Assembly: GCA_964492715.1 (NCBI GenBank)
Contig: CAZBLK010000002.1
Span: forward strand, 66,896-130,895
From: an uncultured Defluviitaleaceae bacterium
Lineage (GTDB): Bacteria; Bacillota; Clostridia; Lachnospirales; WRBF01
Length of the DNA: 64,000 nucleotides
Direction: 5' to 3'
The notes under the pieces were generated by a model. That model saw nothing but the letters and a program-made list of their open reading frames with translations, ran no database searches and had not been told where the DNA came from. The position numbers were made by a program, and so were the translations under genes. Within the stretch, counting starts at the first letter, position 1. Every line of letters begins with the position of its first letter. This document shows positions 3,353 through 57,912 of the stretch, in pieces.

Positions 3353-3364
3353 AAGTAAATTTGC

Positions 3365-3410
3365 AAAAAAATTGAGGAGAGAAATTTCACAATAAACTTT
3401 CTCTCCTCAA
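3365..3410 (-). terminator. Intrinsic terminator at the end of the purine block I operon
   Basis: 13-bp perfect stem TTGAGGAGAGAAA/TTTCTCTCCTCAA (3372-3384 and 3398-3410). A run of 7 T follows on the minus strand. Confidence 0.7.
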
Positions 3411-3426
3411 TCTATAGCAACTCCAC

Positions 3427-3531
3427 TATAGCAATTCCAGTTTTTAACGATAATGGCAGAGGGAAGCCAAACGCCTAGTCGTTTACCGTTTTGACCAATA
3501 GACAATGTCGATTAAAAAAGGAATTGCTATA
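3427..3531. repeat. TIR-bounded small element carrying the conserved 65-nt core (copy 1 of 2)
   Basis: 12-bp inverted termini TATAGCAATTCC / GGAATTGCTATA. The core at 3440-3505 (..GCAGAGGGAAGCCAAACGCCTAGTCG..) recurs at 33422-33488. Confidence 0.6.
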
Positions 3532-3564
3532 ACTTTACCACCTGCAAACCAGAGGAAACATTTT

Positions 3565-5031
3565 TTAAAGCCCATTAAATTCTTCAATTAACCTGTCAAG
3601 CTCATTAGCCATGCCGTGCAGCTTGCCCCAATACTCATCATAGTCATACCACTGTGCGTTTAATTCTTCAACGTCGTACTGTTGCTGCTCTATCCATGTA
3701 TAATATTTTAAGTTGTGTATACGCTTTTTAGTTTGATAAGTAAGTTCTTCCATGCTGTCTGTACGCACTGCATGGACATGGCAAGCAAGGTCAAGCTGTG
3801 CATCAAATTTAAGGTACTCCCTGCCCCTTTCGGCTTCCATTTCGTCAAGCCTTGACTCGTACATTTCCGCAGAGTCTGTAAGAATTGTAAACACTATGTC
3901 GTTTTCTGTAAGCTCATAATATTTAGCAAACTTAATTGACGTCAAAATGTTTGCCGCCCCAGAAATTCCTACCCAGTTTAACTTTTCTATTACGTCGTTT
4001 GAAACTCCGCATTCCTTTAAATATTCATGCCCTGCTTCTTCGTTGCAAAGCCTAAAAAGCCCAAGTGCATCATTGTCGTCAACTGCAACAACCATGTCTG
4101 TGTTTTTTACATTATGAATCCACGGAACATGTTTGTCTCCAATTCCTTCTATGCGGTGGTCGCCGAAGCCGTTTTTTAAAAGTGTTGGGCATTGTAAAGC
4201 TTCACCAACGGCAAACTTTGCATTTTTGTGGTTGTCTTTTATAAAGTCAGCACTTCCCAAAGTTCCGCCAGAGCCAGACGTTAAGCAAACGCCTGCAACA
4301 CGGCTTTTTTCGCCTTTTATTGCGTTGAAAATGTCGTTAAATGCGTTTCCTGTAACTTCGTAGTGCCACAGGTGGTTTCCAAGCTCGCCAAACTGGTTAA
4401 AAATTATTACGTTGTCACGAGTGTTGCGAAGCTCCCACGTTTTGTCGTAAATTTCTTTTACGTTGCTTTCGCAGCCAGGCGTTGCAATAATTTCGCCGGC
4501 AACAGTTTTAAGCCACTCAAACCTTTCACGGCTCATGTTTTCCGGCAAAATTGCAATTGACTTGCAGCCAAGAAGTGCAGAATTGTACGCACCGCCACGG
4601 CAATAATTCCCAGTTGAGGGCCAAACTGCCTCGTGGAACTCTGGGTCAAACTGCCCTGTTACAAGCCGTGGAACAAGGCAAGCAAAACTAGCCCCAACTT
4701 TGTGCGCCCCTGTTGGGAAAAACTTTCCGCTCATAGCAACAATTCTAGCTTTTACGCCGGAAATTTTTTGCGGAATTTCAACAAAATTCGGAAGCTTATT
4801 GTACAAGCCGCCTGTTCTTTGTGGTTGGTTTTTCCACGAAATTCTGTAAAGGTTAATTGGGTCAACACAGTAAAGCCCAGTCTCCTTTAACCTTTCCTTT
4901 ACACTTTCAGAAATTTTATCAGGGTCTTTCATTTGTGCAATAGTCGGAATTACAATACCACGGCTTTTTACAGCATCAGCTGTTTTTTTACGTTGCTTTT
5001 CATTTATTGTAAGGTCGATTAATTTTTTCAT
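3565..5031 (-). CDS. Fold-type-II PLP-dependent enzyme (Trp-synthase-beta/cysteine-synthase superfamily), specific function unknown
   Basis: 488 aa counted from the ATG at 5031, which has a GGGAG RBS; the track ORF extends to 5109, into a repeat. Candidate PLP-lysine motif FPTGAHKVG and a glycine loop LTSGSGGTLG. Last gene of block I. Confidence 0.6.
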   Translation of the reverse strand: MKKLIDLTINEKQRKKTADAVKSRGIVIPTIAQMKDPDKISESVKERLKETGLYCVDPINLYRISWKNQPQRTGGLYNKLPNFVEIPQKISGVKARIVAMSGKFFPTGAHKVGASFACLVPRLVTGQFDPEFHEAVWPSTGNYCRGGAYNSALLGCKSIAILPENMSRERFEWLKTVAGEIIATPGCESNVKEIYDKTWELRNTRDNVIIFNQFGELGNHLWHYEVTGNAFNDIFNAIKGEKSRVAGVCLTSGSGGTLGSADFIKDNHKNAKFAVGEALQCPTLLKNGFGDHRIEGIGDKHVPWIHNVKNTDMVVAVDDNDALGLFRLCNEEAGHEYLKECGVSNDVIEKLNWVGISGAANILTSIKFAKYYELTENDIVFTILTDSAEMYESRLDEMEAERGREYLKFDAQLDLACHVHAVRTDSMEELTYQTKKRIHNLKYYTWIEQQQYDVEELNAQWYDYDEYWGKLHGMANELDRLIEEFNGL

Positions 5032-5102
5032 AAAATTACTCCCTTCAAGTGCTAATAAATATTTAGATAACAGAAGCAAAAATGCTTTCCTTGCACAAAA
5101 AT

Positions 5103-5160
5103 GGGTCAAGGGGCAAGCCCCTTGCGGGGGTTTGGGGGCAGAGCCCCCAAGGTCTTAATC
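5103..5160 (+). repeat. GC-rich double-hairpin repeat, copy 1
   Basis: GGGTCAAGGGGCAAGCCCCTTGCGGGGGTTTGGGGGCAGAGCCCCCAAGGTCTTAATC. Two palindromes: AAGGGGC-AA-GCCCCTT and TTGGGGGC-AGA-GCCCCCAA. Confidence 0.9.
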
Positions 5161-5182
5161 CTTTTTCCGTCCCCCCAAGGTT

Positions 5183-6439
5183 TTATTCCTTTTCCGTCCC
5201 CTCAAGATACCCCTTCAAATCCGACAAATGAGGTTTAATAACCTTAGGCCTTAAAACCGCCATCTGTGCCGACTTAATGTCCTTCAAACCACTTCCCGAA
5301 ACAACAAACACAACTGTTTCATCTGCTCCAATTTTCCCTTCTTTAACAAGCTTTGTAAGCCCGGCAAAAGCGGCAACACCAGCAGGCTCGCCAAACACGC
5401 CTGTGTTTCGTGCAAGCGTAGTCATTGCAGAAAGTATTTCATTATCACTTACATTAACAGCAATTCCGCCGCTTTCTTTAAGCGCAGTTAACGCCTTATA
5501 CCCATTCCGTGGAATACCCACCGAAATACTGTCAGCAATAGTTTGCGGCGGAACGTAGTCAAACCCAAATTCCCCTTTGACAAACGCCCTGTTTACAGGG
5601 TTCGAGTTTTCTGCCTGTACAGAAACCATTTGCGGCAGCCTGTCAATTAACCCAAGCTCGTAAAACTCTTTGAACCCTTTCCAAACGCCAGCAATGGAAC
5701 ACCCATCACCAACAGACATTACAACTTTGTCGGGCACATTAAAACTTAGCTGCTCCAAAATTTCAAAGGCGGCAGTTTTTTTGCCCTCTACCAAGTATGG
5801 GTTTATGGCACAGCTACGGTTGTACCAGCCGTATTCCTCTACAGCTTCCAAACAAAAATCAAACGCTTTGTCATAGTCGCCGTCCACCAAAACTACATTA
5901 CTTCCAAAAATTAAAAGCTGAGTAAGCTTGCCTTCTGGAATTGCCTTTGGCACGAATATATAATTTTTCAAGCCCATGCAAGCCGCAAAGCCAGAAACAC
6001 TAGAAGCGGCGTTGCCCGTAGAAGCGGCACAAATTACGTCTTTGCCAAGCTCGCAAGCTTTTGCTACGCCAACGGCCGAAGCTCTGTCTTTAAACGAAGC
6101 TGTTGGGTTTCGCCCTTCGTCCTTAAAGTAAACGTTTTTAATGTTAAACAGCTTTTCTAGCAGCCCCGACTTATAAAGTGGCGTGTTTCCAATTTTAAGT
6201 TCTGCCGCACCCGAAAGCCCTTTAAGCGGTAAAATTGGCAAGTACCGCCAAATTGTTTGGTCTGCATTTTCCTGTAAATACTTTTTTGTAAGAGTTTGTT
6301 TAACAAGCGGCATGTCGTACAAAACGTCAAGCGTTCCTTCTGTGCCACAAACAGGGCAGTTGTACATAACAGTTTCGTCAACAAGCTTTCCGCACTTTGA
6401 ACACCGTAAATGTTTAATCTTTTCCATAACTATCCGCAA
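5183..6439 (-). CDS. Threonine-synthase-like PLP enzyme with an N-terminal zinc ribbon
   Basis: 418-aa ORF. CSKCG...CPVCG zinc ribbon, the ThrC-type PLP motif NPTASFKDRAS and ASTGNAASS. The start codon is uncertain (TTG at 6439 or ATG at 6427) and no strong RBS is present. Confidence 0.7.
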   Translation of the reverse strand: MRIVMEKIKHLRCSKCGKLVDETVMYNCPVCGTEGTLDVLYDMPLVKQTLTKKYLQENADQTIWRYLPILPLKGLSGAAELKIGNTPLYKSGLLEKLFNIKNVYFKDEGRNPTASFKDRASAVGVAKACELGKDVICAASTGNAASSVSGFAACMGLKNYIFVPKAIPEGKLTQLLIFGSNVVLVDGDYDKAFDFCLEAVEEYGWYNRSCAINPYLVEGKKTAAFEILEQLSFNVPDKVVMSVGDGCSIAGVWKGFKEFYELGLIDRLPQMVSVQAENSNPVNRAFVKGEFGFDYVPPQTIADSISVGIPRNGYKALTALKESGGIAVNVSDNEILSAMTTLARNTGVFGEPAGVAAFAGLTKLVKEGKIGADETVVFVVSGSGLKDIKSAQMAVLRPKVIKPHLSDLKGYLEGTEKE

Positions 6440-6446
6440 GGCTTGT

Positions 6447-7121
6447 TTATTTTAACTTAATCATGCTTAAAATATCGCTGCCCTGCTCCTCCTTAACCAG
6501 CTTCATGTACCGATAAACACTTGGTATTGACATGTCAAGAGCTTTTGCCGTAATGTTTACAGCACCTTTTAAAACAAAAACCCCCGATTGGTAAAGCGTT
6601 TTTATAATAAGCGTTTTGTCGTCCTGCGAAAGGCTTAAAGGGTCAATGTTGTTTTCGGCGATGACGGCTTTAATGCTTGAAATTGTGTGTTCCTCTGCGC
6701 TTATGTTAAGCTGTTCAAGCATTACGTCGTCTTGATATTTGTCGGTGTCGCCTATAATGCTGTTTAAATAGTTACGCATACTTATAAGCTGTAGGTTGTC
6801 GGTGTTTACGCAAAGAAGTCCCACAAGTTCGCCTTCATCACGAATAAAAAACGTTGTAGAACGTATGCTTTGTGCGTTCTTTACTCCGCTAAGGCTGCTT
6901 TCAACAAAGCTTGCTTCGCCCTCTTTTGCCATAGCAACAATTTTGCCTACTTGCTCGCTGGACGGCTCGCCAATTGCGTTTCCGCTTGCTCCACCGTTTT
7001 TCATTGCAATTACTTTAGGTGCATCACCTGTTACATCATGCAAAACAATTTCCGAGTTTGCACCAAGGACAGCCGCAAGGAAGTCCACCAAATTTATATA
7101 AGACTTTAACAATTTATTCAT
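6447..7121 (-). CDS. YheO/DauR-like transcriptional regulator (PAS-like sensor plus C-terminal HTH)
   Basis: 224-aa ORF. N-terminal LVDFLAAVLGANSEIVLHD... YheO-like PAS segment. C-terminal HTH segment (ITAKALDMSIPSVYRYMK). Confidence 0.6.
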   Translation of the reverse strand: MNKLLKSYINLVDFLAAVLGANSEIVLHDVTGDAPKVIAMKNGGASGNAIGEPSSEQVGKIVAMAKEGEASFVESSLSGVKNAQSIRSTTFFIRDEGELVGLLCVNTDNLQLISMRNYLNSIIGDTDKYQDDVMLEQLNISAEEHTISSIKAVIAENNIDPLSLSQDDKTLIIKTLYQSGVFVLKGAVNITAKALDMSIPSVYRYMKLVKEEQGSDILSMIKLK

Positions 7122-7156
7122 AACTCACCTCATCAAATTCTACAGAAAAAACTATA

Positions 7157-10100
7157 TTATACCATAAAACTGTAGTTTTCAAAAAAGGCTTTTATAACGT
7201 TGTAAATTGGGTTTGGAAGATGGCTATTTTCGCTGTCATCCTCAAGCGAAGTTTCCACTACACTTTCACCATAACGTACACGAACAACTTTTCCTTCATC
7301 TATCAACAAAAACCCTTGCTGTGTGCTTTCGTTAAAGTCGTCCTCCGATGAAAAGTATGTAAGCTTATCTTTGTAAGGCGCCGACTTATAAGGGCAGAAC
7401 CCCTCACAGTTTCCGCACTCGTTGCAAAGTGGGTCAAGGTGTACAATTTGCGACATAGAAAGTTGTGGAACTTTTACGGAAACGTTTGCTCTGTTTGGGC
7501 AAACCTCTACGCAAATGTTGCAAACGTAATTACATTCTAAGCAACGCTTTGCTTCGCTTCCTGCTTCAAGCGTGTGGCAAAGCACAGCTTTTTTTGCCGA
7601 CAAAGCATCATAGTTTTCGCCTGCCATGTCCTCGAACGATTTCAGCGGAAGCTCACAGCCTTTTTCACGTTTCATAACCTCGTTTGCAAACGCCAAGCCG
7701 TCAGCCATTGCTTCAACAATTGTCGAAGGCCCACGAGAAGCATCTCCGCCTATGAACACATTTTTAACGGAAGTTTCGCCGTTTTCGTTTGCTTTTATTT
7801 TTCCGTTTACAACTTCAATTCCGTTTTTCTCACAAACAGTTGTGTCTACACGTTCGCCAATTGCGCCGATTACTGTGTCAATTTCAAGCGTGACAAATTC
7901 GTCTGTCGGAACAGGGCTTTGCCTGCCAGTTTTATCTTTTTCGCCAAGCTTCATTTTTTGACAAGTCAAAACGCCGCCTTTGTGCGAGTGTGGCGCTGTA
8001 AGCTCTAAAAACTTAACGCCTTCAATTAAAGCAAGCGCAATTTCTTCACGTTCTGCTGGCGCTAAGTCCATTGTGCGCCTATAAATTACATAAACATTTG
8101 CAACGCCGTTTACACGTGTTGCCGCACGTGCGGCGTCCATTGCAGAATTTCCTGCGCCGATTATTGCAACGTTTTTGCCCAAGCTTACGCTAGGGTTTTC
8201 CCTAAACTGCTCCAAAAATTCAATTACGTTTAAAGGTGTTTTGTCGCTTTCGTCCGCAAGCTTAACTAACGTTTGCTTCCCTGCGCCAATTGCTAGAAGA
8301 ACATATTTAAAGCCGCCACTAAAAAGCGTTTTCAAAGAAAAGATAGGTGTAAAACCTGTAACAAAACGTCCTCCGTGCTTTTTCACAAGCTCTACGTCTT
8401 TTGCAACAAGCTCGCTTTCAATGCGGAAAGTTGGAATGACGTTTGCAACAACGCCTCCAAGCCTTTCTTTTTGCTCGAAAACTGTTACATCAAAGCCGCT
8501 TTTGCAAAGGAACATAGCCGCTGAAAGACCGCAAGGCCCTGCGCCGATTATTGCAACTTTTGCACCGTTTGCTTTTACTGGAATAACTTGGTTTACAAGC
8601 GTGTCGTATGCGGCTTCGGTTGCAACAAACTTTTCCCTGCGGATATAAACAGGCTCGTCGTAGTCTATGCGTGTGCATTTGTCCATACATGGGTGGGCGC
8701 AAATTTTCCCTGTTGTAAACGGCATTGCGTTACGCTCGGTTATTACTTTTAGCGCACCCAAGTAGTCGCCGTTTCCAGTGCGCTTAATGTACTCTGGAAT
8801 GTCTTGATGAATTGGGCAGCCGTTTTTGCAAGGCGCAACGTAACAGCTTAAAAGTGGAACTTGCTCGTTTATTTTGCGGCTTTCAACATGGCGTTTTTGT
8901 TTCATATGGTTTGGGTCAATTTCTGTTGCTAAAGCTGCAAGCTTTTCAAGGTTTATTCCGCTTGGAACGTCATGGCCTTTTTCTAAAAGCTTTTCGGCAA
9001 TTTGCTTTAACCGCAAATAACCGCCTGGTTTTAAAATTGTAGTCGCAACCGTAATTGGGAAAATGCCAGCTTCAAAAATTTTGTCAATGTTAAAAGCATC
9101 TGCACCGCCAGAAAATGAAATGTTCAAGTCGCCGTCAAATGCTGTTGCAAGAATTAACGCCGCATTTATAGAAAGCGGATAAAGCCCACGCCCCGACATG
9201 TACATTTCTTCTCCGGCAAGGCGGTTGTCAACAATTTTTACAGGGAAAGTGTTTGTTAGCTTTACGCCAAACGTAAGCCCCTGCTCTTTTGCCGTTTGCT
9301 TCAGCCGTGTAAGCATAGAAATTGCGGCATCAAACTGCAAATCGTTTTTAAAATGGTGCTCGTCAAACACCAAATGCTTGTATCCCATTTTGTCGCAAAG
9401 TTCCCTAGCCGTTTTGTAGCCCAAAATCGTTGGGTTCATTTTAACAAACGTGTGCAGCTTTTTTTCTGTAAGCAAATAGTTTGCTATTTTTTCAATTTCA
9501 CCTGCTGGGCAGCCGTGAAGCGTTGACAGCGTAATGGATTTGCAAATTTCTGGTGAAATTTCATTTATATATGCTTCGTCTACATTTTCAAACAAAGCTA
9601 TGTTTTCAAGAAGGTAATTTTTACATTGTTTAAAAATGTCGGTTTGCTCGGCGTTTTTCAGCCCTTCTATAAATGTGTTTATCTTCTGAGAAGTAATTCC
9701 GTCATAGTCGTAGCCCACGCTCATGTTAAAAGCAAAGCCATCTTTTGCGCCAAGCCCAAATTCCTTTGTAAGTATAGCAAGCGCAAAATAACCCTTTACA
9801 TATTCCTCAAAAGCTTCGTTTACGTAAAGCTCGGTTGACCATTCAACGTTAAAGCCCTCGTCCGTCGCTTCAATGCAAGGCTTTGCAACAGGTAGGTCTG
9901 GCCCGTCAAGTGTTTGCACCGTTTTAAGCTCGAAAAAGCGGCTGCCCGTTAAAAACCCAGCAACAATGTTTTGTGCAAGCTGTGTGTGTGGGCCTGCGGC
10001 TGGGCCAAACGGCGTTTCAATATGCTTGCCGAAAATTGCCAGCGTTTTTTCTTTGTCTGACACAAAAAACTTGCTTTTGGGTACGCCAAAAATTGTTCCC

Positions 10101-10171
10101 TCTTGTTTATATTCTGTGAATATCCAGTTTATAAGGCGGTTAAATGGTATTTGCTTCATTCGTTCGCTCAT
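7157..10171 (-). CDS. ygfK: YgfK-type multidomain Fe-S flavoprotein oxidoreductase ('putative selenate reductase subunit YgfK' family)
   Basis: 1004-aa ORF. N-terminal dihydroorotate/dihydropyrimidine-dehydrogenase-like barrel. Cys clusters CYVAPCKNGCP and CAHPCMDKC. GltD-like dinucleotide folds IIGAGPCGLSAA and IIGAGNSAMD. C-terminal 2x[4Fe-4S] motifs CLECNYVCNICVEVCP and CNECGNCEGFCP. Confidence 0.85.
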   Translation of the reverse strand: MSERMKQIPFNRLINWIFTEYKQEGTIFGVPKSKFFVSDKEKTLAIFGKHIETPFGPAAGPHTQLAQNIVAGFLTGSRFFELKTVQTLDGPDLPVAKPCIEATDEGFNVEWSTELYVNEAFEEYVKGYFALAILTKEFGLGAKDGFAFNMSVGYDYDGITSQKINTFIEGLKNAEQTDIFKQCKNYLLENIALFENVDEAYINEISPEICKSITLSTLHGCPAGEIEKIANYLLTEKKLHTFVKMNPTILGYKTARELCDKMGYKHLVFDEHHFKNDLQFDAAISMLTRLKQTAKEQGLTFGVKLTNTFPVKIVDNRLAGEEMYMSGRGLYPLSINAALILATAFDGDLNISFSGGADAFNIDKIFEAGIFPITVATTILKPGGYLRLKQIAEKLLEKGHDVPSGINLEKLAALATEIDPNHMKQKRHVESRKINEQVPLLSCYVAPCKNGCPIHQDIPEYIKRTGNGDYLGALKVITERNAMPFTTGKICAHPCMDKCTRIDYDEPVYIRREKFVATEAAYDTLVNQVIPVKANGAKVAIIGAGPCGLSAAMFLCKSGFDVTVFEQKERLGGVVANVIPTFRIESELVAKDVELVKKHGGRFVTGFTPIFSLKTLFSGGFKYVLLAIGAGKQTLVKLADESDKTPLNVIEFLEQFRENPSVSLGKNVAIIGAGNSAMDAARAATRVNGVANVYVIYRRTMDLAPAEREEIALALIEGVKFLELTAPHSHKGGVLTCQKMKLGEKDKTGRQSPVPTDEFVTLEIDTVIGAIGERVDTTVCEKNGIEVVNGKIKANENGETSVKNVFIGGDASRGPSTIVEAMADGLAFANEVMKREKGCELPLKSFEDMAGENYDALSAKKAVLCHTLEAGSEAKRCLECNYVCNICVEVCPNRANVSVKVPQLSMSQIVHLDPLCNECGNCEGFCPYKSAPYKDKLTYFSSEDDFNESTQQGFLLIDEGKVVRVRYGESVVETSLEDDSENSHLPNPIYNVIKAFFENYSFMV

Positions 10172-10182
10172 ATAAAACCTCC

Positions 10183-11499
10183 TTACACTCTAGCCCAAAG
10201 TTTTTGTGAAAGCTCTCTTGACTTTGCAAAAATTTCTGCTTCGTCTGCCGTCAAAAGCTTTCTGTCACGCATTACAACTTTGCCGTTAATAACCGAAGTT
10301 AAAGTGCATCGCCCACTCATACCAAAAAGAATGTGCGAGTTTATGTTTGTTTCGTTAAGCGGTGTCAAAGGGTCGTACTCAACTATAATAACGTCTGCGG
10401 CATAATCTTCTTTAATTTTCCCGACATTCCCAAAGTATTTTTCGGTTATTGCACGGTTGTTTTCAAAAAGCATTTGCGGAACTTCTCCCCATGCAACGCT
10501 TGGGTTTTGCTCGTTATGCTTTTGAAAAATGTTTGCAACTTTCATAGACTCTAACATGTCGCTTGTGTAGCCGTCTGTGCCAAGCCCTGTTAAAACACCT
10601 TGCTCCATTAGCTTTAAAATTTTTGCACAGCCCACAGCGTTACCCATGTTTGACTCTGGGTTGTGTACTACTATCGTATTTGTTTTTTTAAGCAGCTCAA
10701 TTTCGTTGTCGTCTACGTGTATGCAGTGTACGGCAATTGTGTTTTCACCCAAAATGCCGCTGTCGTTAAGCCTCTCAATTACACGCTTGCCGTACTTTTC
10801 TGTGTTAAACTTTACGTCCTCAACGCCCTCTGCGGCGTGAATGTGAAAGCCTGCATAGTCTGGCTTTTTTGCAACTGCCTTCTCAAGCGTTTTGTCCGAA
10901 AGTGTAAACGCCGCATGAAGCCCAAACATTCCGGCCGTCATGCCACCGTTGTTTTCTTTTGCGTGTTTAATGAAGTTTACGTTTTCCTCAATTCCTTCAT
11001 CAGCAATTTTTTCACCGTCTCTGTCGGAAACCTCGTAGCAAAAGCACCCACGGACACCAAGCTCGTTAGCAACGTCAGCAATTGTAAACAAGCTGTTTGT
11101 AACAGAATACGCCGAAGCGTGATGGTCAAACACAGTTGTAACGCCATTTTTTATGCTGTCGGCAAACGTTGCGTATGCGCTGTATTTTACATCATCAAGG
11201 TTTAAAGCTTTGTCAATGCGCCACCACATACCCTCCAGCACTTCCCCAAAGTTTTTTGGTGAAATTCCAAGGTTTAGCCCCCTTGCAAACGCACTGTAAA
11301 TGTGGTGGTGTGTGTTTATTAAACCTGGCATAATGACGTTTCCGCAAGCGTCAATAAATTGTTCATTAGGGTATTTAGCTTGCATTTCTGCCGTTTCGCC
11401 ATAGCCTTTAATTTTTGTTCCTTCTATGTAAACTGCACCGTTTTCAAAAAACGGCTTTGCCTCATTCCTTGTAATAAGCCTTCCATTTCCAATAAGCAT
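10183..11499 (-). CDS. ssnA: SsnA-type amidohydrolase
   Basis: 438 aa from the ATG at 11499, with an AAGGAGGG RBS; the track start at 11565 lies inside a GC-rich repeat. Metal motif PGLINTHHHIYSAF and a later HxH/D set. Sits adjacent to ygfK, as in the E. coli ygf cluster. Confidence 0.8.
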   Translation of the reverse strand: MLIGNGRLITRNEAKPFFENGAVYIEGTKIKGYGETAEMQAKYPNEQFIDACGNVIMPGLINTHHHIYSAFARGLNLGISPKNFGEVLEGMWWRIDKALNLDDVKYSAYATFADSIKNGVTTVFDHHASAYSVTNSLFTIADVANELGVRGCFCYEVSDRDGEKIADEGIEENVNFIKHAKENNGGMTAGMFGLHAAFTLSDKTLEKAVAKKPDYAGFHIHAAEGVEDVKFNTEKYGKRVIERLNDSGILGENTIAVHCIHVDDNEIELLKKTNTIVVHNPESNMGNAVGCAKILKLMEQGVLTGLGTDGYTSDMLESMKVANIFQKHNEQNPSVAWGEVPQMLFENNRAITEKYFGNVGKIKEDYAADVIIVEYDPLTPLNETNINSHILFGMSGRCTLTSVINGKVVMRDRKLLTADEAEIFAKSRELSQKLWARV

Positions 11500-11518
11500 A
11501 AAACCCTCCTTAAAAAAT

Positions 11519-11573
11519 GGGTCAAGGGCAAAGCCCTTGCGGGGGTTTGGGGGCAGAGCCCCCAAAGTCTTAC
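11519..11573 (+). repeat. GC-rich double-hairpin repeat, copy 2
   Basis: GGGTCAAGGGCAAAGCCCTTGCGGGGGTTTGGGGGCAGAGCCCCCAAAGTCTTACA, lying between ygeY and ssnA. Confidence 0.9.
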
Positions 11574-11574
11574 A

Positions 11575-12786
11575 TCAGCCCTTTGCCCCCTCACAATAAA
11601 GCATTGGAATAACGGCATACATAGCCGCACACTTTACAAGCTCGTCTTTGAAAGTTTTTTCATTGGGCGCATGTGCTTGGTCTTCATGCCCCGGACCAAA
11701 CCCGACGCACGGAATGTTGTACCGCCCCATAATAGAAACGGCGTTTGTCGAAAACGTCCACTTGTCAACAAACGGCTTACTTTCAAAAAGCTGTTCATAC
11801 GACTGCACTAAAGTTTTGCAAGCAATGTGGTCTTCTGGCAAAACCCATGTAGGGAAGTAACATTCTGTTGGGTAAACAAGCCCTGTGTAAGCTGGGCGGT
11901 CGTATTCATACATTGAAACAACGGCGTTTGCTGCCTTTACAGAAGGAAGTGCTTCAATTTCTTTTATTGCGCCCTCCCATGTTTCGCCCCAAGTGAGCCT
12001 ACGGTCTACACTTATAGTACAGCTATCAGCTACAGCGCAACGACTTGGCGACGTAAAGAAAATTTCTGAAACAGTTAAGCTTCCTTTGCCTAAAAACTCA
12101 TCGTAGTGAAGCCTTGTGTGAAGCTCCTTTAACTCGTTCAAAATTGGTGCCATTTTGAAAATTGCGTTGTCGCCACGTTCTGGTGCAGAGCCGTGACAGC
12201 TTACGCCTTTTACCGTAACTTTAATTTCCATTCTGCCACGATGCCCACGGTAAATGTTGCACGAGGTTGGCTCGGTAATAACTACAAATTCTGGGCGAAT
12301 GTTGCTTTCGTTTACTATGTACTGCCAGCACAATCCGTCACAGTCTTCCTCTTGAACAGAGCCTACAACAATTAAAGTGTAGTCGTCTTCAAGCTTTAAG
12401 TCCTTTATAATTTTGCCTGCGTAAACCATTGAAGCCATGCCGCCCTCTTGGTCGGAGCCACCACGCCCAACAATTACGTTGTCGTCCTCTGCACCCTCGT
12501 AAGGGTCGTAGTCCCAAAGCGAAATGTCGCCTATACCAACTGTGTCTATGTGTGCGTCCATTGCAATTACGTGTTTGCCGTGCCCTATGTAGCCAAGCAC
12601 GTTGCCCATTTTATCAATTTCAACTTTGTCAAAGCCGACATGTTCCATTTCTTCCTTTATGCGTAGCACAACTTTTTCTTCGTTACAGCTTTCGCTTGGA
12701 ATTGCAATCATATCTCGCAAAAATTTTGTCATGTTTGGCTTGTAGCTTTCGGCTAGTTCTAAAACTTTTTTAAAATCTATTGACAT
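11575..12786 (-). CDS. ygeY: YgeY-type M20 family metallohydrolase (deacylase/carbamoylase-like)
   Basis: 403 aa from the ATG at 12786, with a GGAGGTG RBS. M20 motifs: [19 protein letters not shown] and QEEDCDG. Confidence 0.85.
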
Positions 12787-12810
12787 TTTTAACACCTCCA
12801 TTTAAACGCA

Positions 12811-14001
12811 CTATTCAAAAAACCTTGCTGGCTTTTGGCTTGCCATTTTTGCAAGCATTTCCGCTGGGTTTTTCACCTTTGAAAGGAAAATCATTGCGGC
12901 GATAATATAAGGCTTGTAACCTGCTTGCTTGTAAAGCGGAACACGGTATCTGTCAAAAACAGAAGCCGCAACCTCGCCTTGTTTGCACGAAACGTCTGTT
13001 ATGTCGGCAGGCAAGCAGTGCATGTATAACGCTTTTCCGTCTTTTGTAAGCTGCATCATTTCTTCGGTACATTCCCAGTCCTTGTGGTTTGCGTTTTGTG
13101 CAAGAAGTTCTTTTTCTAAAGCTTTTATACCGTCAAAGTCGTTGTCTGCGTAAAGGTTTGTGCGTTTTTCCATTGCCGCAAAAGGCGCCCAGCTTTTTGG
13201 GTAAACAATGTCTGCGCCAGAAAACGCCGATTTCATGTCATTTGACTTTACAAACTTGCCGCCTGTAGCTTCTGCATTTTTTGAAGCAATTGCTAAAACC
13301 TCTGGCATAATTTCGTAGCCCTCTGGGTGCGCAAGGTGAACTTCCATTCCAAAGCGTGTCATAAGCCCAACAATGCCTTGCGGAACGGAAAGCGGCTTGC
13401 CGTAAGACGGAGAATAAGCCCACGTCATTGCAACTTTTTTGCCTTTCAAGTTTTCCACGCCGCCGAAGTGGTTTATAATGTGCAGCATATCAGCCATTGA
13501 CTGCGTTGGGTGGTCGATGTCGCATTGCAGGTTTACAAGCGTTGGGCGTTGTTCCAAAACGCCATCTTTAAAGCCTTCTTGAACAGCTTGCGAAACTTCT
13601 TTCATGTATGTATGGCCTTTGCCTATGTACATGTCGTCACGAATGCCTATTACGTCTGCCATAAACGAAACCATGTTTGCCGTTTCACGCACAGTTTCGC
13701 CGTGGGCTATTTGGCTTTTGCCCTCGTCTAGGTCTTGCACTTCAAGCCCTAAAAGGTTGCACGCACTTGCAAACGAAAAGCGTGTGCGTGTCGAGTTGTC
13801 ACGGAACAGTGAAATACCTAGTCCGCTGTCGAAAATTTTTGGGCTTATGTTTTCCTCACGGAGTTTGCGGAGTGCGTCTGCTACGGCGTAAACAGCGTGA
13901 ATTTCGTCGTCTGTTTTGTCCCAAGTAAGGAAAAAGTCGTTTTGGTACATTTCCTTAAAGTTTAAAGTGTTTAGTTTGTTGGTGTATGTTTCTATGCTCA
14001 T
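12811..14001 (-). CDS. ygeW: YgeW-type knotted carbamoyltransferase
   Basis: 396-aa ORF. Transcarbamylase signature FRDNSTRTRFSFASA, HPTQSMAD and a C-terminal HCLPA. N-terminal FFLTWDKT typical of YgeW. AGGAGGAAC RBS. Confidence 0.85.
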   Translation of the reverse strand: MSIETYTNKLNTLNFKEMYQNDFFLTWDKTDDEIHAVYAVADALRKLREENISPKIFDSGLGISLFRDNSTRTRFSFASACNLLGLEVQDLDEGKSQIAHGETVRETANMVSFMADVIGIRDDMYIGKGHTYMKEVSQAVQEGFKDGVLEQRPTLVNLQCDIDHPTQSMADMLHIINHFGGVENLKGKKVAMTWAYSPSYGKPLSVPQGIVGLMTRFGMEVHLAHPEGYEIMPEVLAIASKNAEATGGKFVKSNDMKSAFSGADIVYPKSWAPFAAMEKRTNLYADNDFDGIKALEKELLAQNANHKDWECTEEMMQLTKDGKALYMHCLPADITDVSCKQGEVAASVFDRYRVPLYKQAGYKPYIIAAMIFLSKVKNPAEMLAKMASQKPARFFE

Positions 14002-14029
14002 GGTTGTTCCTCCTTGTTAGTTGAAAAGA

Positions 14030-14085
14030 TTAAGACCTTGGGGGCTCTGCCCCCAAACCCCCGCAAGGGGCTTGCCCCTTGACCC
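14030..14085 (-). repeat. GC-rich double-hairpin repeat, copy 3 (inverted orientation)
   Basis: TTAAGACCTTGGGGGCTCTGCCCCCAAACCCCCGCAAGGGGCTTGCCCCTTGACCC, the reverse complement of copy 1. Confidence 0.9.
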
Positions 14086-14104
14086 TTTTTTAAAAAAGAT
14101 GGGT

Positions 14105-14149
14105 TGTAAAAAAGCGGCTTTACTTTGTTTATCTTTAAGTAAAACCGCT
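14105..14149 (-). terminator. Intrinsic terminator after the carbamate kinase gene, inside block I
   Basis: Arms AGCGGCTTTAC (14113-14123) and GTAAAACCGCT (14139-14149), 10/11 paired. TTTTT follows on the minus strand, and a T-run is also present on the plus side. Confidence 0.55.
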
Positions 14150-14182
14150 GTGTTTTTGCGTTTAATAATTACCGTTTAACAA

Positions 14183-15118
14183 TTACATAGTTATCCTAGT
14201 TCCTGTTTGTCCTGCTATGCCTTCTTTAGCTTTTTCCAAAAGTGTAATAAGAGCAGTTCTGTCTTTGCCTGATTTTGCAAATTTAACAGCCGCTTCAATT
14301 TTTGGAAGCATAGAGCCTGGGGCAAAGTGACCTTCCTTGCAATATTGTTCTGCTTGTTCAACTGTTATTTCGTCAAGCCATTTTACATCTGGCTTGCCAA
14401 AGTTTATAGCTGCTTTTTCAACTGCTGTAAGAATAATTAAAGCGTCTGCGTTGATAAGTTGTGCAAGAAGTGCTGAAGCAAAGTCTTTGTCAACGACAGC
14501 TTGTGCGCCGTTTAGGCGGTTGTCGTCACCGAGTGTTACTGGTATGCCACCACCACCAACTGTAATTACAAGCTGGCCAGCTTCAATTAAAGCTTTTACA
14601 GTGTCCTTTTCAATTACGTCAATAGGCTTTGGCGAAGCAATTACTTGGCGATAGCCACGCCCTGCATCTTCCTTCATTGGAACGCCTTTTTTTGTAAACT
14701 CGTCGGCTTCTTCCTTTGTGTAAAACCTTCCAATAGGCTTCGTTGGGTTTTGGAATTCGGGGGCGTCTTTGTCAACTAAAGTTTGAGTAATAATTGTAGC
14801 AACAGGCATGTTTATTTTGCGAGCCAAAAGTTCTTCACGCAAAGCGTTTTGCAAGTCATACCCAATGTAGCCTTGGCTCATTGCAACGCACATTGACATA
14901 GGCATTTTGTCAAACTTAGGGTCGGCAGTAGCCGCAATGTCCATAGCAAGGTTTATCATGCCAACCTGCGGTCCATTACCATGGGAAACAACAACTTGGT
15001 GCCCTTCTTCAATTAAGTCAACGATAGCCTTTGATGTAATTCTTACGGCTTCCATTTGTTCCTTTAGGTTGTTTCCAAGAGCGTTGCCGCCAAGTGCGAT
15101 TACAATTTTTTTACCCAA
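14183..15118 (-). CDS. arcC: Carbamate kinase
   Basis: 311 aa from the TTG at 15118, with an AGGAGGG RBS 6 nt upstream. KIVIALGGNALG and HGNGPQVG motifs. Equivalent to E. coli yqeA. Confidence 0.9.
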   Translation of the reverse strand: MGKKIVIALGGNALGNNLKEQMEAVRITSKAIVDLIEEGHQVVVSHGNGPQVGMINLAMDIAATADPKFDKMPMSMCVAMSQGYIGYDLQNALREELLARKINMPVATIITQTLVDKDAPEFQNPTKPIGRFYTKEEADEFTKKGVPMKEDAGRGYRQVIASPKPIDVIEKDTVKALIEAGQLVITVGGGGIPVTLGDDNRLNGAQAVVDKDFASALLAQLINADALIILTAVEKAAINFGKPDVKWLDEITVEQAEQYCKEGHFAPGSMLPKIEAAVKFAKSGKDRTALITLLEKAKEGIAGQTGTRITM

Positions 15119-15321
15119 AAAAATCCCTCCTAGAATATGTAAAAACAATTGCTATAAATTGTTATATATGTTGTAATAATAATTTATTATAATGTATTTG
15201 TCAAGATAATTTTTTATCATTGAGCAAAATTTTTTATGTTATTTGTCGGTTATATGGATTAACAAGATTAAATTTTCAGTAAACTTTTACATTAAATTTG
15301 TTTAGTCTTTTTATAATGCGC

Positions 15322-16038: not shown

Positions 16039-16041
16039 GGG

Positions 16042-16093: not shown

Positions 16094-16115
16094 ATTTTTT
16101 TACTTAGAGTTTTAT

Positions 16116-52414: not shown

Positions 52415-53017
52415 TTAGCTTTTTAATAATTCTCCCTCAATAATTAAAAAATCATCTTGACTGTCTACGTCAAGCATTTCGACCCTGCTATCAGCTTCGC
52501 ATAAAATAAGCCTATCTGCATTTTTGGAAGCTACATAACCCCCGCCCTTATTACGGTCGAGACCCTTTAAATCATCTTTAAAAAGGTTTGGGAAAATTAT
52601 TGGGTTGCCACGGACGCCGCAGAAGCTTTGCGCCACAATGTTTTGCGGATTGTTGTAAAACGTTTGTATAAGCCGTTTAACAGAGCTTTTTTTGCGCAGC
52701 GGCTGGTCGCAAACTGAAAACATGTAGCCGTCTGCTTCGCCCACAAAATCAAGCCCTGCTTTTATGCTTGTGTTTATCCCTTCTTTGTAATTTTTGTTAA
52801 ACACTGTTTTAATGCCGTACTCGTTTGCAATTTTTAAAACGTCTTCGTCGTGTGCAACAAGCACAGTTTGGTTTAGCATTTCAAGGGGAAGTGCTTCGAT
52901 TGTATAGCACAATAGGGGCTTGCCTAAAAGCGGCGTCAAAAGCTTGTTTGCACCAAAACGGCTAGAAGCACCTGCTGCTAAAAGTATGCAGTTTATAGTT
53001 ATTTCTTTAGTTTCCAT
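52415..53017 (-). CDS. mocA: MocA/YgfJ-type molybdenum cofactor cytidylyltransferase
   Basis: 200-aa ORF. N-terminal ILLAAGASSRFGANKLL NTP-transferase motif. Overlaps the upstream hydroxylase gene by 19 nt. Confidence 0.75.
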   Translation of the reverse strand: METKEITINCILLAAGASSRFGANKLLTPLLGKPLLCYTIEALPLEMLNQTVLVAHDEDVLKIANEYGIKTVFNKNYKEGINTSIKAGLDFVGEADGYMFSVCDQPLRKKSSVKRLIQTFYNNPQNIVAQSFCGVRGNPIIFPNLFKDDLKGLDRNKGGGYVASKNADRLILCEADSRVEMLDVDSQDDFLIIEGELLKS

Positions 53018-55599
53018 AGTTGTAGTTCATTCTTCTTTTCTGTTTTTTTAATTTGTAAAGGAAGCTTTGTTCGGAAAATTCCGTCAAAGCTGTAGTATGC
53101 GCCTTGAATTGCTGGCGCAGTTGGAATTGACGCAATTTCGCCCACACCCTTTGCGCCGAACGCTTCTTCCGAAACATTTCCTTTTACCAAAATTGTTTCG
53201 ACAGTAGGTGCTTTGTCGGCTCGCAAAAGCCCAAGAGTGCCAAACTTAGCTTGCGGCACGCCGTCTTTTAAAGGGAAGTTTTCTGTAAGCGCATAACCAG
53301 CAGACATTACAACGCCGCCTTCAATTTGCCCTTCGACAGAAACAGGGTTTATTGGTTGCCCAACGTCATGCGCCGCTACAATTTTTACAAGGTTTCCGCT
53401 GTCGTCAAGTATGGCGACTTGGGCAGCGTAGCCATATGCAACGTGGCTAACAGGGTTTTCTTTCTCTGTGCCGATTTTGTCAGTTTTTGGTGCGTATTCT
53501 CCAAAATACTCGTTTCCTTCAAGGCTTGAAAGCGACTTTTCCACAAGGTCAAGCGCAAGCTTTTGTGCGGCAAAACGTGTTGCTTCGCCTGTAAAAAGTG
53601 TTTGGCGTGAAGCAGTGGTAACGCCGCTGTTCGGCGTTTTTTCCGTGTCTGGGTCGTGGATAATTATATCTTTTGGGGAAAGACCTGTTGCTTCGCACGT
53701 AATTTGAAGAAGAACGGTTTGCAGCCCTTGCCCAATGCACGCCGCACCAGATAAAACGTGAACTTTTCCACCTTCAACTTTAATTTTGCAACGCCCAACG
53801 TCTGGAACACCTACGCCAAGCCCAGAGTTTTTAATTCCGCAAGCAATTCCAGCAAATTTGTTTTGGTAGAACGCATCTTTTACGGCTTCTAAACATTGCA
53901 CAAGCGCTGTTGAGCTGTCAGCAATTTGCCCATTTGGAAGCGTTTGCCCTGGACGAATTGCGTTCCTCATGCGAATTTCCCACGGCGAAATGCCAACCAT
54001 TTCCGCCAACAAATTTAAGTTGCACTCTGTTGCAAACAAGCTTTGTGTCACGCCAAAGCCACGGAACGCACCTGCTGGTGGGTTGTTTGTGTAAACCGCC
54101 TTGCCGACAATTTCAATGTCGTGGTAGTTGTACGGCCCAGGGGCATGGGTGCAAGCCCTTTGCAAAACTGGGCCACCTAAAGAAGCATATGCACCTGTGT
54201 CGGAAATTATTGTTGCTTTCATAGCTGTTAAAATTCCGTTTTCGTCACACGCCGTTGTAAATTCCATTTCCATGGCGTGGCGTTTTGGGTGGACGTTTAT
54301 ACTTTCTTGACGTGACAGCTTAAACTTCACTGGCTTGCCTGTTTTTTGTGCAAGCAGGGCAGAGTAGTGCTGAACCGACATGTCTTCTTTGCCTCCAAAT
54401 CCGCCGCCTACGGTCATTGTTTTAACATGCACTTTTTCCGTAGGAAGCCCAAGCACCTCCACGCACTCGTGCTGTGTTTGGAACGCACTTTGGTCAGAGC
54501 AATAAATTACAATTCCACCATCACTTTTTGGAACACTAACTGCACATTCAGGCTCTAAAAAAGCGTGTTCCGTGAAAGGTGTGCTATATCTTTTTGTTAC
54601 GACATATTTACTGTTTTTTATTACATCTTCGGGGTTGCCACGCCTAAGCTTTTGCACAAAAAGGACGTTGCCGTCTTCGTGAAGAAGCGGTGCGCTTTTG
54701 TGCAAAGCATCTTTTGGTGAATTTATTACTGGTAGAACATTATATTCTATTTCTATAAGCTTTTTTGCCTGCTCTAAAATTTCTTTTGTTTCGGCAGCTA
54801 TAAGCACAATTCCGTCGCCTATATACCTTGTAACTTCGCCTTCACCAATTAAAACGTCCCAATCCTTTTTTAAATGGCCAATTTTTTTGGCAGCTGGCAA
54901 GTCTTTTGCTGTAATTACAGCGTGTACACCAGAAAGGCTTTCTGCTTTTTCTGTATTTATTTTTTTTATGTAAATTCTAGGGTAAGGTGGGTGAACAACT
55001 CCACCGTATAACATTCCATCAAAAAACAAATCGTCTGTATAAAAGGCTTCGCCCAAAGCTTTTTTAACGGCATCTACTCGTGGAATATTTTCGCCTATTC
55101 GCCCTGTAAAGTTTTCGCTTGGAATTTCTTCGTTTTCTCGAAAAATTTTTGCCGCAAGTTTAATTGCTTCGACAATTTTAATATACCCTGTGCAGCGACA
55201 AATGTTGCCTTTTATTGCCGTTTTAATTTGCTCATCAGAAATTTGGTTTTTTTCATGTTGCAAATTTTTATCCAGCAAAGCTTTTGCGCTTATAATCATT
55301 CCGGGGGTGCAAAAGCCGCATTGAACCGCACCGCATTTTGCAAAGGCATAGGAATAAACACTTTTTTCACGCTCGGTTAATCCTTCAAGCGTAACAATTG
55401 TTTTTCCGTCAACTTTGCCGGTTGTAGTAACACAAGCTTTTGTTGCTACGCCGTCAATTAAAAATAAGCAAGTTCCACATGCGCCTTCTTCACAGCCGTT
55501 TTTTACTGATGTAAGGCGCAATTCATCACGCAGAAAGTGCAGGAGCTTTGTTTCTTTGTCAGTACAAACAACTTTTCCGTTTACTATAAAGCTTGACAT
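52999..55599 (-). CDS. xdhD: XdhD-like molybdenum hydroxylase with fused N-terminal 2x[2Fe-2S] domains (selenium-dependent hydroxylase family)
   Basis: 866 aa from the ATG at 55599. CEEGACGTC and CGFCTPG..CRCTGY, followed by a molybdopterin-binding body (GGGFGGKED, GAFRGFG, CIGQGLQT). Confidence 0.8.
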   Translation of the reverse strand: MSSFIVNGKVVCTDKETKLLHFLRDELRLTSVKNGCEEGACGTCLFLIDGVATKACVTTTGKVDGKTIVTLEGLTEREKSVYSYAFAKCGAVQCGFCTPGMIISAKALLDKNLQHEKNQISDEQIKTAIKGNICRCTGYIKIVEAIKLAAKIFRENEEIPSENFTGRIGENIPRVDAVKKALGEAFYTDDLFFDGMLYGGVVHPPYPRIYIKKINTEKAESLSGVHAVITAKDLPAAKKIGHLKKDWDVLIGEGEVTRYIGDGIVLIAAETKEILEQAKKLIEIEYNVLPVINSPKDALHKSAPLLHEDGNVLFVQKLRRGNPEDVIKNSKYVVTKRYSTPFTEHAFLEPECAVSVPKSDGGIVIYCSDQSAFQTQHECVEVLGLPTEKVHVKTMTVGGGFGGKEDMSVQHYSALLAQKTGKPVKFKLSRQESINVHPKRHAMEMEFTTACDENGILTAMKATIISDTGAYASLGGPVLQRACTHAPGPYNYHDIEIVGKAVYTNNPPAGAFRGFGVTQSLFATECNLNLLAEMVGISPWEIRMRNAIRPGQTLPNGQIADSSTALVQCLEAVKDAFYQNKFAGIACGIKNSGLGVGVPDVGRCKIKVEGGKVHVLSGAACIGQGLQTVLLQITCEATGLSPKDIIIHDPDTEKTPNSGVTTASRQTLFTGEATRFAAQKLALDLVEKSLSSLEGNEYFGEYAPKTDKIGTEKENPVSHVAYGYAAQVAILDDSGNLVKIVAAHDVGQPINPVSVEGQIEGGVVMSAGYALTENFPLKDGVPQAKFGTLGLLRADKAPTVETILVKGNVSEEAFGAKGVGEIASIPTAPAIQGAYYSFDGIFRTKLPLQIKKTEKKNELQLWKLKK

Positions 55600-55688
55600 A
55601 GCTTTCACCTTTTTTGTTTGACTTATTAAGTTTATTTTATTACATAATCTACAAAAAAACAAGCAAAAATTATAAATAATTAGTAAAA

Positions 55689-56922: not shown

Positions 56923-57912
56923 TCACTCCTTTATACAGTTCAAAACTTCGATAAACACTTGAATTTCACCGCCGCAAATCATTTCCCCTTTTGTTACGTC
57001 CTCATTCAGCATTTGGCAGGTGACAAGTGCGGAAGTGTTGTTTTTACACGCTTCTATTGATTTTTGCAAAACTTCATGCTCGGCACTACCGCCACCAATT
57101 GTACCCATTATTGTTTCGTCTTTGAAAACAACCATCTTTGAGCCTGCTTTTCTTGCGGCTGAACCTTTTGTTTGGGTAATTGTTAAAACGGCTAAAGCGT
57201 TTTCATTTTGGCACGCCAAAAATATTTCTTCGTTTGCAGAAATTTGTGCGGCTTTGTTTTTTACAGAAATTATTTCTGCCAAAATGCTAATTGCAATTTC
57301 TTCGGGGGTTTCAGCATGGATATTAAGCCCAATTGGGGTGTGGATTTTTGAGAGGACTTCTTCTGTAAAGCCGACATCACGAAGCTTGTTTAGGACGAGG
57401 GAAATTTTTCGCTTGCTTCCAACCATTCCAACGTAGGCATAGCTATTTTTTAAAATTGCTTCAAGGCAAGCTCTGTCGGACAAGTGGCTGTTTGTTACAA
57501 TGACATAGTAGTTGTTTTCGTCAAAGCCAGCTTCTGAAAGTGCTTCTTGGTACGGCTTGCAAACTGTTTTTGCGTTTTCAAACCGTGCGTTTGATGCAAA
57601 TTGCTGGCGCTCGTCAATTACCGTAACAGAAAAACCAACCGTTTCAGCAATTTTATAAAGGCAAAGCGCAATGTGTCCGCCACCACAAATTACAAGGCGT
57701 GGCTTTTTCACAATTGTTTCTGCAAAAAAGGTTAAGCTGTTTAATGCTTCTTGAGGCAAACCAATTAAGCCGTCATCACAAAAAACAACTTCTTCTTGTG
57801 CGGCGGCTATTTTTTGCCCTAGTAATTTTTCATTTCCTGCAATTACTGTTTGGACAGTTACGTTTTTATGTTTTTCCATCAACGTTTGAAGCTGTTTATA
57901 AAAGCTACTCAT
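56923..57912 (-). CDS. XdhC/CoxI family molybdenum hydroxylase maturation protein
   Basis: 329-aa ORF. Rossmann-like LVICGGGHIA in the middle, flanked by XdhC_CoxI-type N- and C-regions. Its start overlaps the yqeB stop (ATGA). Confidence 0.8.
   Translation of the reverse strand: MSSFYKQLQTLMEKHKNVTVQTVIAGNEKLLGQKIAAAQEEVVFCDDGLIGLPQEALNSLTFFAETIVKKPRLVICGGGHIALCLYKIAETVGFSVTVIDERQQFASNARFENAKTVCKPYQEALSEAGFDENNYYVIVTNSHLSDRACLEAILKNSYAYVGMVGSKRKISLVLNKLRDVGFTEEVLSKIHTPIGLNIHAETPEEIAISILAEIISVKNKAAQISANEEIFLACQNENALAVLTITQTKGSAARKAGSKMVVFKDETIMGTIGGGSAEHEVLQKSIEACKNNTSALVTCQMLNEDVTKGEMICGGEIQVFIEVLNCIKE

Follow-up and report, generated by a model that had tools for sequence, protein, structure and literature searches.

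A conserved pair of PLP enzymes at the place of YgeX in a clostridial cluster linked to anaerobic urate catabolism

Gut bacteria that break down urate without oxygen influence the urate levels of their host, and probiotics are being engineered to do the same. The route concerned, the reductive or 2,8-dioxopurine pathway, was fully reconstituted in 2025 (10.1101/2025.04.24.650524; PMC12507026). Urate is first converted to 2,8-dioxopurine, either by XdhD-YgfM or by XdhAC/DOPDH, which lacks flavin adenine dinucleotide (FAD). YgfK acts as 2,8-dioxopurine reductase, SsnA then opens the pyrimidine ring to give ureidomethyl-hydantoin, and HyuA converts this to 2,3-diureidopropionate. YgeW phosphorolyses one ureido group and YgeY hydrolyses the remaining one, yielding 2,3-diaminopropionate (DAP), which YgeX turns into pyruvate and two NH3 in E. 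coli and C. sporogenes (10.1101/2025.04.24.650524; PMC12507026). The carbamoyl phosphate that YgeW releases is used by carbamate kinase to form ATP (Liu et al. 2025, 10.1101/2025.04.24.650524). Here we analyse a stretch of 64 kb from an uncultured Defluviitaleaceae bacterium (the window; contig CAZBLK010000002.1), in which eight co-directional minus-strand genes at positions 3565-15118, called block I, follow the order arcC-ygeW-ygeY-ssnA-ygfK-yheO-thrC-like-PALP488. The last two encode fold-type-II pyridoxal phosphate (PLP) enzymes, a ThrC-like protein and a 488-aa CysK/CBS-like protein, PALP488. We think it somewhat more probable than otherwise, judging from gene context and protein sequence, that this pair, often together with YheO, takes over the DAP-to-pyruvate step, in a version of the reductive pathway that is widespread but has not been described before. 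The pair goes unmentioned in either 2025 paper or the commentary (10.1101/2025.04.24.650524; PMC12507026), and literature searches for it, or for YheO in purine catabolism, found nothing usable.

The window resembles the E. coli ygeV-ygeWXY-hyuA-yqeA...ygfK-ssnA-ygfM-xdhD cluster in that its YgfK, SsnA, YgeW, YgeY and carbamate kinase are equivalog-level matches, and in that yqeB, yqeC and mocA, for selenium-dependent Mo-hydroxylase maturation, share the window with block I, as does xdhABC. Unlike E. coli, it lacks HyuA, YgeX, YgeV and YgfM, its regulator is YheO-type and not a sigma-54 activator, a ThrC-like and CysK-like pair stands at the place of ygeX, and all genes are co-directional in one array. 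With the Clostridium sporogenes cluster it shares a Bacillota context and YgeW with carbamate kinase as the ATP-yielding step. Like the DOPDH (XdhAC) of that species, the fused Fe-S/Mo hydroxylase of the window has no FAD domain; it is a candidate urate-reducing enzyme and lies about 40 kb from the other pathway genes. C. sporogenes depends on HyuA and YgeX, the pathway being blocked in mutants of both, whereas the window has neither gene. The C. difficile variant likewise shows non-orthologous replacement of single steps, with UacX replacing YgfK and UacY replacing YgeW, but in the window the replaced step would be the terminal PLP lyase. The composition of block I, described as non-canonical in the first-pass annotation of this DNA, is indeed so relative to E. 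coli and C. sporogenes; the arrangement is nevertheless widespread among anaerobes and not unique to the window.

The absence of hyuA and ygeX, also proposed at first pass, was borne out. Searches by tblastn with the E. coli proteins (E<=1e-3) found no HyuA or YgeV homologue in the 64-kb window, and family scans of the other open reading frames agreed. The sole YgeX match in the same search was the ThrC-like gene, 24% identical along 173 residues. The flank adjoining the window start, followed for about 3 kb, contained a hydrolase and a nitroreductase, and neither hyuA nor ygeX.

The relation between the ThrC-like gene and ygeX was examined in a YgeY-anchored sample of 80 metagenome loci forming 68 non-redundant groups, independent of the PALP488-anchored sample described below. 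We observed the ThrC-like gene alone in 25 of the 68 loci, YgeX alone in 18 and both together in none (Fisher p = 9e-5); the loci with at least 4 kb on each side gave 15, 6 and none (Fisher p = 0.006), counts and p values that ignore phylogenetic relatedness. The PLP enzymes are thus not two extra enzymes appended to the operon, as had been suggested, but a conserved pair at the place of YgeX. A CysK-like partner lay beside 24 of the 25 ThrC-like genes, 11 being of the 488-aa type and 13 of a distant type (33-41%) that goes with OTC-like proteins and not with true YgeW. Elsewhere ygeX itself occupies the ThrC-like slot directly after PALP488, as YheO-PALP488-YgeX in locus L017 and PALP488-YgeX-YheO in L067. 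Conversely, L035 has the full canonical set, a HyuA-like gene among it, except that the PLP pair stands where ygeX would be. On these observations, the relation between the ThrC-like gene and ygeX is a pattern of in-situ non-orthologous displacement, and PALP488 appears to have a separate, frequently co-required function.

Conservation of the pair was assessed in 80 PALP488 loci, retrieved out of at least 598 species genomes. Of these loci, 41 had the ThrC-like gene, immediately beside PALP488 in 37 of them and without exception on its strand (25 downstream, 16 upstream). Other neighbours were YgeW or an OTC-like protein (29 loci), YgeY (26), carbamate kinase (21), the Xdh Mo subunit (17) and a HyuA-like protein (11), and 55 of the 80 loci had at least one purine- or ureido-type neighbour (YgeY, YgeW/OTC-like, ArcC, Xdh, HyuA-like, SsnA or YgfK). 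A YheO-like regulator was found in 13, usually immediately upstream of the pair. The pair occurs in at least four regulatory architectures, with YheO, a YgeV-like sigma-54 activator, an HTH-cupin protein, or GntR or TetR. In C. tagluense, a YgeV-like sigma-54 activator and the PLP pair form a stand-alone unit, paralleling the unit of ygeX and sigma-54 activator in Desulfosporosinus. The regulator of the window (6447..7121, minus strand) matches PAS_6 (PF08348, 89.1 > 27) and HTH_22 (PF13309, 60 > 29.6). The first-pass annotation was right that a YheO-type regulator stands in block I and YgeV is missing, but the swap is not specific to this variant, as YheO-type regulators accompany ygeX-type clusters too.

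A sister cluster type was seen at eleven loci. It combines YgeY (70-77% identical) and a ThrC-like protein with a distant CysK-like protein (33-38%), an OTC-like carbamoyltransferase (about 31% to YgeW), and its SsnA- and Xdh-like proteins are divergent. Such clusters may represent a parallel pathway for another N-heterocycle.

The ThrC-like protein of the window (5183..6427, minus strand; PALP 255 bits) passes TIGR00260 (233.8 > 167.1) and barely reaches PRK08197 (304-305 vs 303). All 11 family members tested had these two 'threonine synthase' models as their best matches, and no DAPAL model was among their matches at E<=1e-20. With both threonine-synthase cut-offs exceeded by the window protein, annotation pipelines would very likely call this family threonine synthase. 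The protein aligns over the full catalytic domain to solved threonine synthases (PDB 2ZSJ, 6CGQ, 1UIM), sharing the fold, the SxKDR motif with its PLP lysine (SFKDR), the STGN loop and about 40% overall similarity. Unlike them, it has an added N-terminal Zn-ribbon and replacements at T88, S155, R160 and N188 (T. thermophilus numbering). Five positions (T88, N154, S155, R160 and N188) are invariant in the three solved enzymes and substituted in 28-33 of 33 ThrC-like relatives, T88A, S155A/G, R160L/M/T and N188D occurring in all 33. The window protein has A, S, A, L and D at the five positions. In T. thermophilus ThrC these residues reportedly form the phosphate site for O-phosphohomoserine (Omi et al. 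2003). Judged by these substitutions, the threonine synthase label is very likely wrong for the family.

The ThrC-like protein is, like YgeX/DpaL, a fold-type-II PLP enzyme in the same genomic slot with the same neighbours, YgeY and YgeW. It differs from YgeX/DpaL in its low identity and in coming as one of two PLP enzymes instead of one. The invariant Asp188 of the ThrC-like family was considered as the equivalent of YgeX Asp189 or Asp120 and rejected, the alignment placing neither there. If the ThrC-like enzyme is a DAP lyase, it would be an independent solution to that reaction.

PALP488 (3565..5031, minus strand) starts at the ATG at 5031, after a ribosome-binding site, rather than at the TTG at 5109. 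Homologues occur in at least 598 species-representative genomes at 57-79% identity. Identity is 75-80% across Clostridia and 57-66% in Halanaerobiales, Thermotogae, Bipolaricaulota, Chloroflexota, Acidobacteriota and Asgard archaea. In the latter (Thor-, Loki- and Hodarchaeota) the family is common, at 57-60% identity to the clostridial protein and usually without purine-type neighbours. Although sources name the 488-aa family 'cysteine synthase', it falls far under every cut-off of the curated models (cysK 94.3 vs 350.95; CBS 77.4 vs 510.25). In a phmmer alignment to 5B53 it keeps the PLP Lys, Asn-loop, QF motif, Gly-rich loop and Ser to the pyridine N of CysK/CBS. Stretches invariant within the family and specific to it are AVWPSTGNYCRGGA, QCPT and HR.EGIGDKH.

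An AlphaFold model of PALP488 built from a 29-sequence alignment including Asgard homologues reached a pLDDT of 84.5; an earlier 12-sequence alignment gave 60 and was discarded. In the model, extra helices at both termini flank a core of the CysK/CBS fold. Foldseek with this model returned generic CysK/CBS neighbours only and no closer characterised relative, the nearest being Fn1055, CBS, OASS and beta-cyanoalanine synthase at TM 0.73-0.80 (to targets) and 20-27% identity. PALP488 thus shares core fold and PLP-binding motifs with CysK, CBS and Fn1055 but differs from them in helical extensions of about 85 residues at the N-terminus and about 100 at the C-terminus, and in its own invariant motifs. 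The CysK/CBS motifs and modelled fold indicate that PALP488 probably catalyses beta-elimination or beta-replacement, on an alpha-amino acid whose beta carbon carries a leaving group. DAP and ureidoalanine are both substrates of this type. We also considered PALP488 as a hydantoinase bypass complementary to HyuA. The idea was not supported: L003, L035 and L061 have both, while L152, L157 and L168 have neither. A PLP enzyme is in any case chemically unsuited to hydantoin hydrolysis.

The remaining genes of block I, all on the minus strand, were identified by profile search of the window proteins. Carbamate kinase, arcC/yqeA (14183..15118; TIGR00746, 377.8 vs 358.25), starts with TTG at 15118, 8 nt past GGAGGG. 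It is followed by ygeW, a knotted carbamoyltransferase (12811..14001; TIGR03316, 781.9 vs 500), ygeY, an M20 hydrolase (11575..12801; TIGR03526, 712.9 vs 321.5), the amidohydrolase ssnA (10183..11499; TIGR03314, 591.9 vs 455.5; NF005540, 652.2 vs 444) and ygfK, an Fe-S flavoenzyme (7157..10171; TIGR03315, 1367 vs 835.3, covering residues 2-1003 of 1004). All five exceed the NCBIfam curated cut-offs, so the five adjacent genes are what the first-pass annotation took them for. Its link to anaerobic urate and purine catabolism is supported by these gene identities and the 2025 pathway work; its remark that the enzymatic steps were only partly assigned has been outdated by that reconstitution of the whole pathway (10.1101/2025.04.24.650524; PMC12507026). 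The true start of ssnA is the ATG at 11499, preceded by AAGGAGGG; the mechanical start of that reading frame, TTG 11565, runs through a repeat copy described below. A strong sigma-70-like promoter, TTGACA-17-TATTAT with an 11/12 match, lies 5' of arcC at 15176..15204 (minus strand) and is the likely operon start. A search for RNA-seq runs containing the locus found none. Block I is one co-directional array and possibly a single operon, which would cover the middle and lower steps of the reductive urate pathway. We rejected the idea that its base composition is anomalous: GC is 0.42-0.45, like that of block II, a second purine block in the window, against about 0.40 for the window.

We propose the following scheme for the window. 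The fused selenium-dependent Mo hydroxylase at 52999-55662, about 40 kb away, would reduce urate to 2,8-dioxopurine, YgfK would reduce the ring of that product and SsnA would open the reduced ring. The hydantoinase step is not encoded in the window. YgeW would then phosphorolyse one ureido group, with carbamate kinase turning the carbamoyl phosphate into one ATP gained, and YgeY would hydrolyse the second ureido group to give DAP. In place of YgeX, the PLP pair, under YheO control and presumably with urate as inducer of block I, would carry DAP to pyruvate. The ThrC-like enzyme is most likely the DAP (beta-amino) eliminating lyase and a direct positional replacement of YgeX. We assign it this role because it takes the position of ygeX, because its phosphate site has changed, and because it has gained an invariant Asp. 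PALP488 may draw on the same pool of C3 amino acids for another reaction of the beta-elimination or beta-replacement kind, with the other DAP enantiomer or a mono-ureido precursor as candidate substrates. What each PLP enzyme acts on, and how the two share the work, we infer from sequence and context. It is possible, if doubtful, that PALP488 and its ThrC-derived partner constitute an unrecognised terminal branch of anaerobic purine catabolism with at least one new enzyme activity that the E. coli and C. sporogenes pathway does not have. Candidates for such an activity are a stereospecific D- or L-DAP lyase, or a ureidoalanine beta-lyase or beta-replacement enzyme.

Several observations weigh against this scheme, besides the relatedness that the exclusion counts ignore. 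The catalytic Asp120 of YgeX corresponds to Thr in the ThrC-like protein and the segment with Asp189 is gapped, so that neither residue has a counterpart. In three Desulfosporosinus genomes the PLP pair and a ygeX/sigma-54 activator unit lie 5-8 kb apart, showing that exclusion does not hold strictly at the level of whole genomes. Four loci (L017, L067, L081 and L123) have PALP488 together with ygeX, which indicates that its reaction is not simply that of YgeX. PALP488 is also found alone in non-purine contexts, for example in Asgard archaea; such neighbourhoods (Asgard, KSB1 and others) showed no common theme and held methyl-accepting chemotaxis proteins, ABC-F, DEAD helicase, PPDK and transporters. 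Finally, the absence of HyuA from the window leaves the encoded pathway incomplete unless hyuA is elsewhere in the genome.

The missing hyuA could also mean that block I is an incomplete or decaying pathway, and that the organism, lacking HyuA and YgeX, cannot bring urate as far as pyruvate but halts at an intermediate or cross-feeds. Neither gene is present in the 64 kb or the roughly 3 kb past the window start, and a comparable reduction is seen elsewhere. In seven loci from gut Oscillospiraceae and Clostridia metagenome-assembled genomes, only a six-gene lower module was found, with YheO-PALP488-ThrC-like divergent from YgeY-YgeW-ArcC and no ssnA or ygfK within 10 kb. Such genomes may feed on ureido intermediates or have the pathway genes scattered over several places, and the Oscillospiraceae with the lower module may gain ATP by cross-feeding on ureido intermediates from primary urate degraders. 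By contrast, all eight genes of block I are intact and full length against their models, and hyuA may sit elsewhere on the 167-kb contig or in the rest of the genome. The hyuA-less architecture containing the pair also recurs in unrelated genomes with complete clusters (L029, L067, L111, L135), which argues for function rather than decay. We regard this reading, incomplete or decaying, as unlikely.

Just as improbable, in our estimate, is a division in which the ThrC-like enzyme alone replaces YgeX and PALP488 serves cofactor maturation, breaking down Cys or Sec to supply the sulfide or selenide of the Mo=S/Mo=Se centre of the hydroxylases. Its closest solved structure is the H2S-producing Fn1055, it coexists with ygeX in the few loci named above, and in five others it lies among XdhC-like, MocA, YqeB/YqeC-like and NTPase genes. 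Its commonest neighbours, however, are the ThrC-like gene (41/80), YgeY, OTC-like/YgeW and ArcC, and not maturation genes. The Oscillospiraceae YheO-PALP488-ThrC-like operon has no Mo enzyme within 10 kb, and in the window PALP488 is more than 40 kb from yqeB and yqeC.

A little less probable again is that urate is not the substrate of the cluster and that its place is taken by a different oxopurine, for example, or by a ureido compound derived from pyrimidines, the PLP enzymes reflecting a different terminal amino acid. Among the 25 ThrC-like loci of the YgeY-anchored sample, 14 have OTC-like proteins alone (28-35% to YgeW), in most cases beside divergent SsnA- and Xdh-like proteins, which suggests that sister pathways exist. 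The window, however, has equivalog-level YgeW, YgfK, SsnA and YgeY. It also holds a DOPDH-type fused hydroxylase, xanthine dehydrogenase, adenine and guanine-type deaminases and a purine permease, a set that fits a route from purine via urate to 2,8-dioxopurine. That the PLP genes are an ordinary biosynthetic threonine synthase and cysteine synthase merely adjoining a urate operon is very improbable: the ThrC-like protein does pass TIGR00260 and just reach PRK08197, and sources do call the 488-aa family 'cysteine synthase', but pairing and linkage to YgeY, YgeW, ArcC and Xdh genes are conserved across phyla, the ThrC-like gene excludes ygeX in the YgeY-anchored sample, the ThrC-invariant positions, reportedly phosphate-binding, are replaced in 33/33 relatives, PALP488 scores 94 on cysK where the cut-off is 351, and in many genomes the pair lies in an array with a dedicated YheO regulator that we read as co-transcribed.

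If the PLP pair does complete the pathway, as we favour, several consequences follow for annotation. Clusters with the pair would escape any survey relying on ygeX as its marker; it is such clusters that were the more numerous in the YgeY-anchored sample (25 ThrC-like vs 18 ygeX). Li et al. (PMC12507026) scored 'YgeX' in neighbourhoods only as PF00291, a family that also matches both members of the pair, and scoring any PF00291 protein conflates three different enzymes. Systematic threonine synthase and cysteine synthase labels on the pair corrupt metabolic reconstructions of many anaerobes. The conserved context also provides a short list of candidate substrates for the unusually conserved 488-aa family, making its function directly testable.

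Elsewhere in the window, block II (43894-59443) is a complete 'upper' purine block. It contains adenine deaminase, an 8-oxoguanine/guanine-deaminase-type amidohydrolase, a purine permease, xdhCBA, mocA, the fused selenium-dependent Mo hydroxylase, moeA, an XdhC-like factor, yqeB and yqeC. The fused Fe-S/Mo hydroxylase (52999..55662, minus strand; 887 aa; TIGR03311, 1351 > 830) is 51-61% identical to fused genes inside the urate clusters L003, L067, L111 and L157. By this similarity it is a candidate for the enzyme converting urate to 2,8-dioxopurine (DOPDH/XdhAC type) and feeding block I. The yqeB and yqeC genes, markers of selenium-dependent Mo-cofactor maturation, lie at 57909..59443 (minus strand; TIGR03309, 367.6 > 220; PF19842). 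Sporulation and flagellar genes are also present in the window and, together with best matches to Clostridia, assign it to Bacillota.

Block I is interrupted by three copies of a GC-rich repeat of about 65 nt: one between the two PLP genes (5097..5164, minus strand), a second between ygeY and ssnA (11510..11572, minus strand), which is the copy crossed by the mechanical ssnA start, and a third, inverted, between arcC and ygeW (14024..14091, plus strand). The repeat forms two GC hairpins with a T-run after the second. A role as riboswitch or attenuator was rejected: the repeat has no Rfam match, its folding z-scores are only -1.1 to -2.9, one copy is inverted, and it is multi-copy in the source metagenome, with a depth 5-8x that of its flanks, many different flanks and loose ends into other loci. 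It looks like a dispersed element of the repetitive extragenic palindromic or miniature inverted-repeat transposable element (REP/MITE) kind, not an operon-specific regulator, and may act as a partial terminator too.

Public contigs of the four source gut-metagenome runs break at each of the three repeat copies, so the order of the four segments of the block rests on the original assembler. That order is credible because adjacency of the ThrC-like gene and PALP488 is conserved in other genomes. Across 2500-16200 of the window, k-mer depth in all four samples was 1.2-1.7x higher over the segments from the ThrC-like gene to ygeW than over those with PALP488 and arcC, and about half of the public contigs over this region were only 95-99% identical. 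This pattern points to related strains or GC-dependent coverage. A second repeat at 3424-3531, just 3' of the last operon gene, has inverted arms at 3427-3455 and 3503-3531 and is 80% identical to a copy at 33406-33474, 30 kb off. It too coincides with high depth and a contig break in public assemblies.

Three further features were noted. Divergent from the arcC promoter, 15589-16038 (plus strand) encodes a bacterial Staygreen-family protein (PF12638, 144 bits), which is odd for a gut clostridial genome. Plant Staygreen relatives are chlorophyll Mg-dechelatases. Direct repeats of 169 nt at 27577-27745 and 32927-33095, 90% identical, surround a methyl-accepting chemotaxis gene and a BlaI/BlaR1-type repressor/sensor pair. 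Finally, 42473-43849 (plus strand) encodes a 458-aa protein with a tandem Pro/Ala/Thr-rich linker (DNA repeats at 42585-42784), an internal 135-nt duplication and a C-terminal FMN_bind domain.

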